Origin: Escherichia phage WPEC1
Length of the DNA: 64,000 nt
Sequence record: PV659873.1
Strand: one strand, 5' to 3'
A program made the position numbers and the translations under genes. Below the pieces are notes generated by a model, which had not been told where the DNA came from, searched no databases, and worked only from the letters and a program-made list of their open reading frames with translations. How positions within the stretch are numbered: position 1 is the first letter of the stretch; each line of letters begins with the position of its first letter. This document shows positions 41,156-43,828 of this stretch, piece by piece.

Positions 41156-43828
41156 ATGTTTCCAATTCCAATATTTACTATTATGACCAGCACTGGTGTA
41201 GTTCCTCTGCCAGCAGGTATTGTTAAAAAAGTAATCACTTTAGATTACCCAGATAATGCTGGTAATTCTAACAGTAGTTTAGCAATTTTGCTTAATGATG
41301 GTAGATTGTTTACTCAAGGCGCAAACCTTTTTGGTGAGATTGCAGATGGAACTCGTAGTGCACGATTCAATAATTTCTACTTAGCTTCTACTGTAGTAGC
41401 GGATGTGTTTACCGCAGATCGTTGTTTTGTTATTAAAACTAACAGTGGGGGATGGCAATATTCAGGATTGACAGCAGGATTGGTAGGATCTATAGCAGCA
41501 GGTGGTACGGATGCATGTGTAACTACTTGGACCAGCTTTCCATCTGTGATAACAGGGACTATCTCTTTAGCCAATCTTAAAGAGGTTAAGGGAGGATACA
41601 ACAACACCCTCTGGTTAATGAATAGTGGTGTTCTTTATGGATCTGGTCAAAACACAATAGGTAGTTTAGGTGCAAGTACTACTAACGAAGTTTCTACTCC
41701 TCGTCAGATAACAAGTTCAGCGGTTGCTTTTGATGCAGGTTACAACCAATGTTCTTATGTCAACAATGCTGGAACCTTGCGTGTTTGTGGAGCCAGTAAA
41801 GGTTTAGCAGGTAATAATAACACAACAACAGCTTTTGTCAATGCTACGATATCTGCTACTGAAACAGTGTATGTCAAAGATTACATTAATACAGTTTCCC
41901 AGACAATAGTTGTAGGAGATACCTCCGGTGGCACGGGTACAGTAAACTACTTATATGTTAGATCTAATACAGAAACAACTTACACTAAACTGGACACCTT
42001 TGCAGCAGGTTTCTCCACATGGAAATTTCCACCAAGCCGCCACTCTTTTTTCGTTGGGATCAATAATTCCTTGTGGGCTATTGGTAAGAACTATACTGCA
42101 AACTTAGGTTTGGGGTATGATTCTGCGAGCGGAGATCCCCTCCAAGTAGGAAAACCAGTTAAACCTGAAGGAGTGGGTTCCTGGGATATAAATAAGCTCA
42201 CAAGCGTTCATACGCTGAATATGGATGTTACTAACCAATTAGGTTATCAAGGAACCTTTTTCGTTTATAATGGAGATATGTATTATTCCGGTATTTGGAA
42301 AGATGGGAAAGCCTCGTACCTGTTCAATAGTGGTCTAAACTATAATAAATTCACACCAATAGCAAGCTCTGTGATTACTGGGGATGTGCTGGCAACTAGC
42401 TTAACTACAGATTCTTTAGGAGTTTGTATTGTAGGTGGAACTAAACAGTTGACACATTCTGTTAGCCCAGAAGGAGGTAAACTTTTCAATATTAAATACA
42501 CTTCTTCTGCCCCTGCAAACATGACAATATCGTCTACTGGCTTAATGACTTTCCAAGCAGAAGGTGGTTTTGATGCAGGTATGACAGCCTTAAACGCTGA
42601 AGGAACAACTTTATCAGATACCTCTGGAGGATATGCTTCAACATTAAGTGTTTACACTCCTAGCTTATCTGCGATGGATGTAGGAACAACACAAACAATG
42701 GTAGCAGAAATAACGCCAACAGGAGCAGCAAGCTTATCTGGCATGGTTGTAGAGTATACAACTACAGATCCTAATGTTGCTACAGTAGATCCTACAACTG
42801 GCGTAATAACTGGTGTTGGTGACGGTGGTTGTAGGATTGGTTGCACAGCTACGTATCAAGGTGTTGTTACCGCTTCTGATAGTTCTTATTTAACGGTGAA
42901 TGCTGTTGCGGGAAAGGAGTTAGCTCCATCTCCGAGTAGTAGTTTAACGGTTCTAAACGGATATTTCAACCACTCGGCAGATGGGGCGATTACGTTCCCA
43001 ACTTTATCGGGTACTGTCACACCAGCTAACTTTGTAGTTAAGGTGGATGACGTTGTAGTTCCTTCAAGTAAAGTAATATTTAGAAATAAAGCTTTCTCTA
43101 CAGTGGATAGTTATCCAGCAGGAGAATATAGACTGGCTATTGAATTTGCAAGTGCTTCAGTAGTTAATACTGTTGATGTGTCTATGCAAGCAAACCCAGA
43201 TCTTTTAGAATTATGGGGCGGAAACAGGATTAGTTATTCTACAAGCCCAACCTCACAATTCTTAAAAGGTTGTGCTAACTTAAGACGAATAACCTCTGAT
43301 TGTTTTAGTAACACATCTTACACCGGAACATCTATAAGTGGTATCTTCTCTGGCTGCACAAGTTTGATAGCTATCCCTGAAGGATTATTCAGTGATACTT
43401 TATTTCCTTCGATGACAACAATGTCAAACACGTTTGAAGGTTGTACATCTTTAACATCTATTCCTTCAGATTTATTTAAGAATCTATCAAAAGTTACAAG
43501 ATATTCTTACACCTTTAAAGATTGCACCTCGCTTGCAGAAGTTCCAGCAGGAATGTTTGATAATATTCCAACTAAAGTGACCTCTTTAACAGCTACATTC
43601 CAAGGTTGTTTAGCACTTACAGATTTTAATAAAATCTTTAATGACAACCTAGGGTTAACGGTTTGTGGTCAACGTGGAGCATTATCTTCTTTCTTTAGTG
43701 GATGCACAAATCTTACAGGAACAGGAGTAACATTAACAAGCACATTAGGTGGAGCAGCTAATAGTTACCTATTTAGGTATTGCACAAAACTTTCTGATTA
43801 TAACAATATTCCTTCGGGTTATAAATAA
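41156..43828 (+). CDS. tail fiber/receptor-binding protein with Ig-like region and C-terminal BspA-type leucine-rich repeats
   Basis: C-terminal repeats ...FSGCTSLIAIPEGLF..., FEGCTSLTSIPSDLF..., FKDCTSLAEVPAGMF..., FQGCLALTDF... Confidence 0.5.
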   Translation: MFPIPIFTIMTSTGVVPLPAGIVKKVITLDYPDNAGNSNSSLAILLNDGRLFTQGANLFGEIADGTRSARFNNFYLASTVVADVFTADRCFVIKTNSGGWQYSGLTAGLVGSIAAGGTDACVTTWTSFPSVITGTISLANLKEVKGGYNNTLWLMNSGVLYGSGQNTIGSLGASTTNEVSTPRQITSSAVAFDAGYNQCSYVNNAGTLRVCGASKGLAGNNNTTTAFVNATISATETVYVKDYINTVSQTIVVGDTSGGTGTVNYLYVRSNTETTYTKLDTFAAGFSTWKFPPSRHSFFVGINNSLWAIGKNYTANLGLGYDSASGDPLQVGKPVKPEGVGSWDINKLTSVHTLNMDVTNQLGYQGTFFVYNGDMYYSGIWKDGKASYLFNSGLNYNKFTPIASSVITGDVLATSLTTDSLGVCIVGGTKQLTHSVSPEGGKLFNIKYTSSAPANMTISSTGLMTFQAEGGFDAGMTALNAEGTTLSDTSGGYASTLSVYTPSLSAMDVGTTQTMVAEITPTGAASLSGMVVEYTTTDPNVATVDPTTGVITGVGDGGCRIGCTATYQGVVTASDSSYLTVNAVAGKELAPSPSSSLTVLNGYFNHSADGAITFPTLSGTVTPANFVVKVDDVVVPSSKVIFRNKAFSTVDSYPAGEYRLAIEFASASVVNTVDVSMQANPDLLELWGGNRISYSTSPTSQFLKGCANLRRITSDCFSNTSYTGTSISGIFSGCTSLIAIPEGLFSDTLFPSMTTMSNTFEGCTSLTSIPSDLFKNLSKVTRYSYTFKDCTSLAEVPAGMFDNIPTKVTSLTATFQGCLALTDFNKIFNDNLGLTVCGQRGALSSFFSGCTNLTGTGVTLTSTLGGAANSYLFRYCTKLSDYNNIPSGYK

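Follow-up and report, generated by a model that had tools for sequence, protein, structure and literature searches.

Introduction

Tails that carry many different fibers, compared with a 'Swiss army knife' at nanometer scale, are a defining trait of the phages related to phi92, rV5 and phAPEC8 (PMC8594841; PMC10844046). Here we analyze one gene of such a fiber cluster, located at positions 41156 to 43828 on the + strand of a 64,000-nucleotide (nt) stretch of Escherichia phage WPEC1 (PV659873.1), which we call the window. The source phage, a phAPEC8-like myophage that infects E. coli, is classified in Phapecoctavirus (Stephanstirmvirinae); it belongs to the same phage group as those named above and has the same locus layout, including a colanidase of the phi92 gp150 type, but in phi92 itself only a 202-amino-acid (aa) stub of Big_2 domains (gp152) stands at the position of our gene. 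The product of the gene has been published as TfpM1, with 890 or 891 aa (PMC12695924), and we use that name throughout. We find that TfpM1 consists of an N-terminal peptide, an RCC1-type beta-propeller, two Big_2 immunoglobulin (Ig)-like domains, a small beta-sandwich and a leucine-rich repeat (LRR) domain, in that order, and that in many related phages everything after aa 584 is replaced by an unrelated module. An initial annotation, made from the sequence alone, had read three distinct receptor-binding architectures in a row as a sign of multivalent host recognition; this is reasonable but not new for this phage group, and the cluster holds more than three fiber genes.

The closest described relatives of the N-terminal part are PVP-SE1 gp40, its GAP31 counterpart and rV5 gp27: their N-terminal peptide and propeller are orthologous to those of TfpM1 and their genes occupy the same operon-end position. 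However, none of them has an LRR domain, and rV5 gp27 continues into an Ig-rich protein of 1878 aa, a type recorded as 'lateral tail fiber protein with intimin domain' in Vequintavirus entries of the BASEL collection, e.g., CarlMeissner. Outside phages, the propeller resembles RCC1-like proteins (UVR8, RPGR, HERC2, RCC1), with which it shares the RCC1 repeat, but at an identity of only 14-17%. There is no reason to expect a guanine-nucleotide-exchange or chromatin role, and the propeller is presumably a structural or lectin-like module of a virion protein.

For the C-terminal part, the nearest systems are the BspA/TpLRR proteins of bacterial cell surfaces (B. ovatus BACOVA_04585, 4fs7; a 'cell surface protein', 4gt6; a Treponema protein, 6mlx). 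TfpM1 shares their F-x-G-C-x-s-L … I-P … F signature and is likewise modelled as an LRR solenoid, but it has no PF13306 match, its units measure 26-32 aa with the final two or three degenerate, and its LRR domain forms the tip of a phage tail-operon protein. The 26-residue-repeat proteins of the DUF285/PARCEL type have a similar repeat period (~26-28 aa in TfpM1), but TfpM1 scores under both curated cut-offs and shows no DNA-level tandem repetition.

Domain architecture of TfpM1

The gene and its parts have the following positions in the window:

41156..43828, + strand: gene for TfpM1, an open reading frame of 890 aa matching PHROG 11922 'tail protein' over its full length
41156..41203, + strand: conserved N-terminal peptide (aa 1-16, M-F-P-I-P...), candidate docking segment
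41204..42364, + strand: RCC1-type beta-propeller (aa ~17-403)
42368..42907, + strand: two Big_2 Ig-like domains (aa ~405-495 and ~498-584), putative spacer or stalk, from Pfam and the structure model
42908..43252, + strand: small beta-sandwich and linker (aa 585-699), start of the exchangeable cassette
43253..43825, + strand: BspA/TpLRR-type LRR solenoid (aa 700-890), 7 units and a C-terminal cap (…CTKLSDYNNIPSGYK)

The N-terminal peptide is conserved across genera, its M(F/L/Y)PIP start recurring in PVP-SE1 gp40 and rV5 gp27, yet aa 1-16 have a predicted local distance difference test score (pLDDT) <50 in the structure model, a combination that is compatible with a docking peptide. The region that follows is placed among the RCC1-like beta-propellers by its repeat profile (Pfam RCC1 just above cut-off; WD40_RLD 2e-11) and by a propeller fold in the AlphaFold2 model that covers it (pLDDT 84.6), so that aa 1-403 as a whole carry both marks of this class; sequence matches of the N-terminus in the PDB are RPGR, UVR8 and HERC2. 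The initial annotation named domains of this tail gene but overlooked the propeller, which makes up 45% of the protein.

The Ig-like segment that had been noticed before the repeats is borne out: Pfam Big_2 (PF02368) has two matching stretches (30.4 bits, cut-off 22.8; E 3.7e-7), and the model shows two beta-sandwich domains, at aa ~405-495 and 498-584. Strands of a further small beta-sandwich are modelled at aa ~597-664, ahead of the LRR solenoid. Both domain models are confident.

Conserved N-terminal part and exchangeable C-terminal cassette

The conservation values and allele counts given here come from a protein-level search of sequenced phages. The N-terminal part of TfpM1 (aa 1-584) is 96-98% identical in all phapecoctaviruses; the LRR cassette (aa 585-890) was found in only 35 phage records. 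At its full length of 2673 nt, the gene is 100% identical to that of Escherichia phages WPEC2, WPEC4 and WPEC6 and 96-97% identical in ~30 further phages, e.g., Mt1B1_P17, ESCO5, AV125, AV126 and 536_P1; in relatives, GenBank labels it 'tail protein' or 'hypothetical protein'. An unrelated 307-aa module takes the place of the cassette in ~39 phage records, including phAPEC8, ESCO13 and phiWec179:

7753..8676 of the phage ESCO13 locus (L002): alternative 307-aa C-terminal allele, compared with window 42908..43828

The ESCO13 protein is 97% identical to TfpM1 through '…SYLTVNAV' (aa 584) and unrelated beyond it, and the alleles part between codons 584 and 585 (nt 42907/42908). The alternative tip is homologous to the 'tail fiber protein gp17' of PDB entry 9occ (1.9e-20) and also to the head-spike fiber of RcGTA (6tb9, 2.8e-14). 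This two-allele exchange explains why TfpM1 has been described with either 890 or 891 aa. The protein thus has a conserved N-terminus and a variable, exchangeable C-terminus, and as judged from sequence this conservation pattern is the classical signature of a conserved virion-proximal scaffold with an exchangeable distal tip. Because the protein switches exactly after aa 584 between unrelated tips, the LRR domain is most likely the exchangeable distal binding module. The ratio of nonsynonymous to synonymous substitution rates (dN/dS) against Mt1B1_P17 was 0.07 for the propeller, 0.16 for the Big_2 domains and 0.30-0.34 for the cassette (one pairwise comparison with small counts).

The two alleles are found in phages whose host requirements have been compared. 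Phages of the phiWec179 and phiWec188 types carry different tip alleles, and the secondary host requirements of the two groups are reported to differ as well (flagella and YhaH, respectively; PMC12695924). Another fiber gene, TfpL, also differs between these groups.

Outside the phapecoctaviruses, aa 1-583 are 38-44% identical in Seunavirus phages (GAP31 and PVP-SE1 gp40), whose orthologs of 565-610 aa stop directly after the Big_2 pair; the tip is therefore not required for whatever the base does. The N-terminal ~195 aa, including M(F/L/Y)PIP, are 39% identical to the start of the 1878-aa rV5 gp27. The syntenic protein of phi92, gp152 (L010 4456..5064), consists of the two Big_2 domains, with 64% identity to aa 411-584 of TfpM1 (tblastn), and has neither propeller nor tip. 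The next protein downstream, gp153, is unrelated to either tip: we considered it as a split-off alternative tip and rejected this, since BLASTP shows no similarity. In Justusliebigvirus, the gene is reported to be absent (PMC12695924).

Could the gene be a decaying or dispensable mosaic remnant of recombination that has no significant function in present-day phages? Its patchy presence, seen in the phi92 stub, in the truncated Seunavirus forms and in a 3.5-kb deletion tolerated by a metagenomic relative (see below), would fit such a history. We nevertheless find this scarcely credible, since >70 independent phage genomes retain an uninterrupted frame of 890 or 891 aa, the dN/dS values of 0.07-0.34 indicate strong purifying selection, both domain models are confident, and the deletion variant itself keeps the LRR cassette in frame.

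LRR modules in other phage proteins

That deletion variant is P0001, a 396-aa protein of a metagenomic phapecoctavirus (Logan SRR10359460 contig 34; L005 8001..9191) and a natural in-frame fusion. It joins the Tail_spike_N anchor (aa 1-73) of the collagen-like fiber, encoded just upstream of TfpM1 in the window, to aa 568-890 of TfpM1, i.e., to the end of the Big_2 region, the beta-sandwich and the LRR domain. The deletion spans ~3.5 kb, equivalent to window ~39319..42856, and was seen in a single contig; its junction lies in a CAA·GTGTTG microhomology (~10 nt imperfect, longest exact match 7 nt). We rejected an assembly artefact: the shared sequence is too short for a graph of k=31 to collapse there, and for this reason we treat the deletion as real. 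The LRR cassette of P0001 sits at the C-terminus, on the distal side of the N-terminal virion anchor Tail_spike_N. This one contig suggests that the cassette can ride on a different anchor.

The fusion also bears on the polarity of TfpM1. If the polarity were the reverse of the one suggested above, the propeller would be the real sugar-binding receptor module, and the LRR domain and beta-sandwich would serve protein contacts within the virion, for example by bridging to other fibers. LRRs classically mediate protein-protein interactions, and some phage receptor-binding proteins, e.g., gp45 of staphylococcal phage phi11, bind sugars through a propeller 'platform'. Yet it is the propeller that is conserved across three genera with different hosts (E. 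coli, Salmonella and Cronobacter), while the C-terminus is swapped; P0001 places the LRR cassette distal to an N-terminal Tail_spike_N anchor, and the Seunavirus orthologs function without any LRR. We regard the reversed polarity as improbable.

Distant LRR homologs in phage genomes adjoin tail or lysis genes, their neighbors including a DUF4376 protein as well as lysis and packaging genes; DUF4376 is a domain found in tail-fiber-associated proteins. One homolog, P0008, is encoded on a large contig of phage-like character without tail genes next to it. BFVD already gives the name 'BspA family leucine-rich repeat surface protein' to phage proteins that share the fold of the LRR module.

A separate case comes from prophage-like phages of Klebsiella: in phage ST16-OXA48phi5.4 (Peduoviridae; L009 2523..5549), the P2-type baseplate 'tail protein I' carries a fused LRR module. 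This protein has 1008 aa and a C-terminal extension with eight places that match the LRR (~31% identity), and it represents another functionally uncharacterised BspA-type LRR grafted onto a phage tail protein.

Classification of the repeats

The C-terminal 190 aa of TfpM1 contain seven repeat units, which start at aa 703, 731, 760, 787, 815, 847 and 873 and measure 28, 29, 27, 28, 32, 26 and 18 aa, respectively. Their signatures are, in order, LKGCANL, FSGCTSL..IP, FEGCTSL..IP, FKDCTSL..VP, FQGCLAL, FSGCTNL and FRYCTKL…IP; IP or VP after the motif is found in three units, and another in the C-terminal cap. There are 6 occurrences of the pattern F.[GDY]C..L in aa 700-890 and none in aa 1-699, while 20,000 shuffles of the 191 residues averaged 0.012 occurrences, with at most 2. 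The initial annotation had counted at least four repeats of the F(E/K/Q)GC(T/L)SL...IP...F type, and this count is upheld and extended. Tandem Repeats Finder detected no DNA-level tandem repeat in the gene, which rules out a recent DNA duplication of the repeats and indicates that the units are old and diverged.

Assigning these repeats to a family is less direct. PF13306 (LRR_5; gathering threshold 27.7 bits) gave no match, either with the whole protein at E<=0.1 or with aa 676-890 at E<=10. DUF285 (PF03382) reached 13.8-16.8 bits (E 0.006-0.05) against a cut-off of 25, and PARCEL (TIGR02167) 15.2 bits (E 0.013) against a cut-off of 30; DUF285/PARCEL is nonetheless the only repeat family that touches the sequence of TfpM1 directly. 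Because there is no direct LRR_5 match, we established the label 'BspA-type' through homologs and through a search of their profile against the PDB. With aa 583-890 as query, 584 homologs were found; among the best 120 of them, ~45 carry a precomputed LRR_5 domain and ~37 carry DUF285, and the LRR_5-bearing homologs match TfpM1 at E values of 1e-46 to 1e-12. When homologs were rescanned, P0008 passed LRR_5 (50.4 bits) and P0005 passed DUF285 (42.2 bits). The profile of the homolog family matches 4fs7 (1.2e-27) and 4gt6 (5.5e-26) ahead of every canonical LRR, and also the Treponema TpLRR 6mlx (1.2e-10).

The structure model agrees with this assignment: the C-terminal region forms a right-handed LRR solenoid in which each repeat contributes one short beta-strand to a parallel sheet, and its final two or three units are degenerate and partly helical. 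Domain searches therefore do support an LRR, by way of the domains of the homologs and the profile search, and the family named in the initial annotation stands, although the sequence of TfpM1 itself misses LRR_5. The tip of TfpM1 is most accurately called a divergent member of the BspA/TpLRR–DUF285 repeat superfamily, which is very large: with aa 700-890 as query, an exhaustive search retrieved 17,776 cluster representatives at E<=1e-3, and many of these are giant proteins with multiple repeats.

Genome setting and neighboring genes

The TfpM1 gene is encoded within the tail/baseplate morphogenesis module. It is the final gene of a + strand operon that begins with the tape measure at 20620 and also holds baseplate hub and wedge proteins, a 958-aa tail protein and a 687-aa tail protein, and it had rightly been called the last tail gene. 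Upstream of it lie, in order, the short fiber with its chaperone, the colanidase spike and the collagen fiber; synteny around the gene is unchanged in PVP-SE1 and rV5. The operon runs convergent with - strand replication genes across a hairpin at 43831..43852. The fiber genes and hairpins are:

34037..35068, + strand: short tail fiber, operon member
35084..35623, + strand: Tfa-type chaperone of the short tail fiber, operon member
35973..39026, + strand: beta-helix tailspike of 1017 aa, with Tail_spike_N at aa ~302-361 and a colanidase beta-helix at aa ~425-1000
39038..39051: terminator-like GC hairpin and T-run after the spike gene
39090..41114, + strand: collagen-like fiber of 674 aa, with Tail_spike_N at aa 12-77, interrupted Gly-X-Y runs and a C-terminal knob
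41117..41136, + strand: terminator-like GC hairpin and T-run, from a consensus scan and sequence reading (a pattern match only)
43831..43852, no strand assigned: bidirectional terminator-like hairpin, from a consensus scan of both strands (0.1 expected in shuffles)

The two genes before TfpM1 had been described as a beta-helix spike and a collagen-like fiber, and both descriptions are sound. The spike matches phi92 gp150 (PDB 6e0v_A; E 2.1e-78), with aa 425-1000 aligned on residues 95-623, and further matches PHROG 6117 'colanic acid degradation' (1e-282), a WcaM-like family (1e-25) and Tail_spike_N (2.4e-9); it is predicted to be a colanic-acid-degrading spike of the phi92 gp150 type. The collagen-like fiber shows Gly-X-Y runs in its translation and matches Pfam Collagen (PF01391) in 3 stretches (1.5e-14, 53.9 bits against a cut-off of 27.2), Tail_spike_N (1.2e-19) and PHROG 15437 'tail fiber protein', while its aa 559-671 match the 'putative tail fiber protein' 9cuy_g of the PDB (7e-8). 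Its translation also contains, at aa ~105-330, three copies of a ~30-aa motif, GKSAY(Q/E)xWLxxGNxGTxxxFxxxLKGxKG, each of which is directly followed by a Gly-X-Y run, suggestive of a repeating unit with a globular and a collagen part.

All three consecutive fiber genes are each followed by a terminator-like hairpin, the last one bidirectional. The hairpin between the collagen fiber and TfpM1 genes lies just 5' of the GGAGG ribosome-binding site of the latter, and PVP-SE1 has annotated terminators at the position equivalent to 43831..43852. The three hairpins could set graded fiber expression or stabilise transcripts.

Two further differences from Mt1B1_P17 were observed downstream. In that phage, an extra 'endonuclease' gene (L001 14701..15108, - strand) lies directly 3' of the tail gene. 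The window lacks this gene and has, between the tail gene and the following - strand gene, only a 56-nt spacer that includes the hairpin (43829..43884). The difference appears to be one of presence or absence of a gene of the homing-endonuclease type. The DNA polymerase I gene (46449..49781, - strand; 1110 aa) has a 245-aa insertion at aa 583-827 relative to the 865-aa Mt1B1_P17 ortholog, with flanks that are 99-100% identical. Cys is the first residue of the insert and Asn its last, with a Cys coming next, all hallmarks of an intein; a Pfam search at E<=1e-3 gave no intein family in it. The Logan contig that encodes P0001 (L005) encodes the same 1110-aa form of DNA polymerase I.

Discussion

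We judge it fairly probable that TfpM1 is an accessory side appendage of the tail with a propeller base, an Ig spacer and a distal LRR cassette as its tip. In such an appendage, the N-terminal peptide and propeller (aa 1-403) would form the conserved virion-proximal base, which probably docks onto the baseplate periphery or another fiber and may also act as a lectin; the two Big_2 domains (aa 405-584) would be the stalk or spacer; and the beta-sandwich and LRR cassette (aa 585-890) would be the distal tip whose ligand-binding surface faces the host cell. Base and stalk are kept in related phages, which replace the tip by recombination exactly at codon 584. TfpM1 would in this way add one swappable host-surface specificity beside the colanidase spike, the collagen-like fiber and the short tail fibers; 'tail fiber' is to be taken as a putative label. 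In virions of the related phage W70, proteins with an RCC1-type domain (IPR009091) were seen by mass spectrometry (PMC11370258), and TfpM1 is presumably a virion component as well.

A number of observations weigh against this proposal. In the literature on virion proteomics and cryo-electron microscopy (cryo-EM), we found no statement on TfpM1 or its orthologs: the rV5 paper does not mention gp27, the 2026 cryo-EM paper on phi92 does not mention gp152, the W70 supplements on virion mass spectrometry hold no entry for the ortholog, and the O177 'proteomics' paper is in silico only. Receptor genetics of the LRR-allele phages 536_P1 and phiWec188/190 points to the lipopolysaccharide (LPS) core, with YhaH in addition for the phiWec188/190 group, and none of the published receptors of LRR-allele phages has been mapped to the TfpM1 gene. 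The hairpin directly upstream of the gene could mean low expression. The Seunavirus orthologs end without a tip, and phi92 keeps just the Big_2 pair. Finally, unlike classical trimeric fibers, TfpM1 is built from propeller, Ig and LRR domains that are all typically monomeric, and a Pfam scan found no coiled coil, beta-helix or Tail_spike_N domain in it.

A rival reading is that TfpM1 is a Hoc-like monomeric decoration or adherence protein that does not act in receptor binding for infection. Through its Ig-like and LRR domains it would adhere weakly to mucus, biofilm matrix or other non-receptor surfaces and would raise encounter rates without determining host range. All domains of TfpM1 are of the monomeric adhesin type, with no trimerisation module found; the gene looks accessory, being tip-less in Seunavirus, a 202-aa stub in phi92 and reportedly absent in Justusliebigvirus, and it has a terminator-like hairpin upstream; receptor genetics of the LRR-allele phages maps to LPS and not to a second receptor; and the alternative tip is homologous to a head-spike fiber, that of RcGTA. 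BspA-type LRR proteins of oral and gut bacteria, moreover, bind host matrix or host cells. We still consider a decoration protein unlikely: the gene lies inside the tail-fiber operon and not among head genes, and host-range determinants would be expected to show just such a sharp two-allele cassette exchange and a raised dN/dS of the tip. Different alleles are carried by the phiWec179 and phiWec188 groups, which reportedly also differ in their secondary host requirements, but TfpL differs between them too.

A bolder version of the tail-appendage proposal is that TfpM1 is a monomeric, adhesin-style appendage whose LRR tip binds protein and not glycan. Candidate ligands would be proteins or organelles of the bacterial surface, and even constituents of animal mucus or epithelium could serve. 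We think this quite unlikely, but if it is true, a coliphage would use a binding mode borrowed from bacterial surface adhesins, and the tip would be the first LRR module for receptor binding to be characterised in a phage, with thousands of functionally uncharacterised phage and bacterial homologs behind it.

Part of what we describe is already known: dozens of phages in GenBank carry the gene, the name TfpM1 has been given to it, and LRR or 'BspA family' labels are attached to other phage proteins. Our literature search yielded nothing relevant on RCC1 or LRR domains in phage fibers, no description of the propeller, Ig and LRR make-up of TfpM1 or of the two-allele swap at codon 584, and no functional study of an LRR phage tip. 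To a specialist, the gene is not surprising: it is ordinary variation in a phage group known for its many different fibers, and it reveals no new kind of system.

The practical interest lies in the phages that carry it. Phapecoctaviruses are among the coliphages of broadest host range in therapy and biocontrol cocktails (e.g., AV125, 536_P1 and ESCO5), and a conserved propeller-Ig scaffold with two interchangeable tips, LRR or jelly-roll-like, and a swap point at codon 584 offers a handle for host-range engineering. The same layout of scaffold and tip helps to interpret differences between near-identical therapeutic phages, and it draws attention to BspA-type LRR modules as a class of tail tips that is widespread in phages but functionally uncharacterised.

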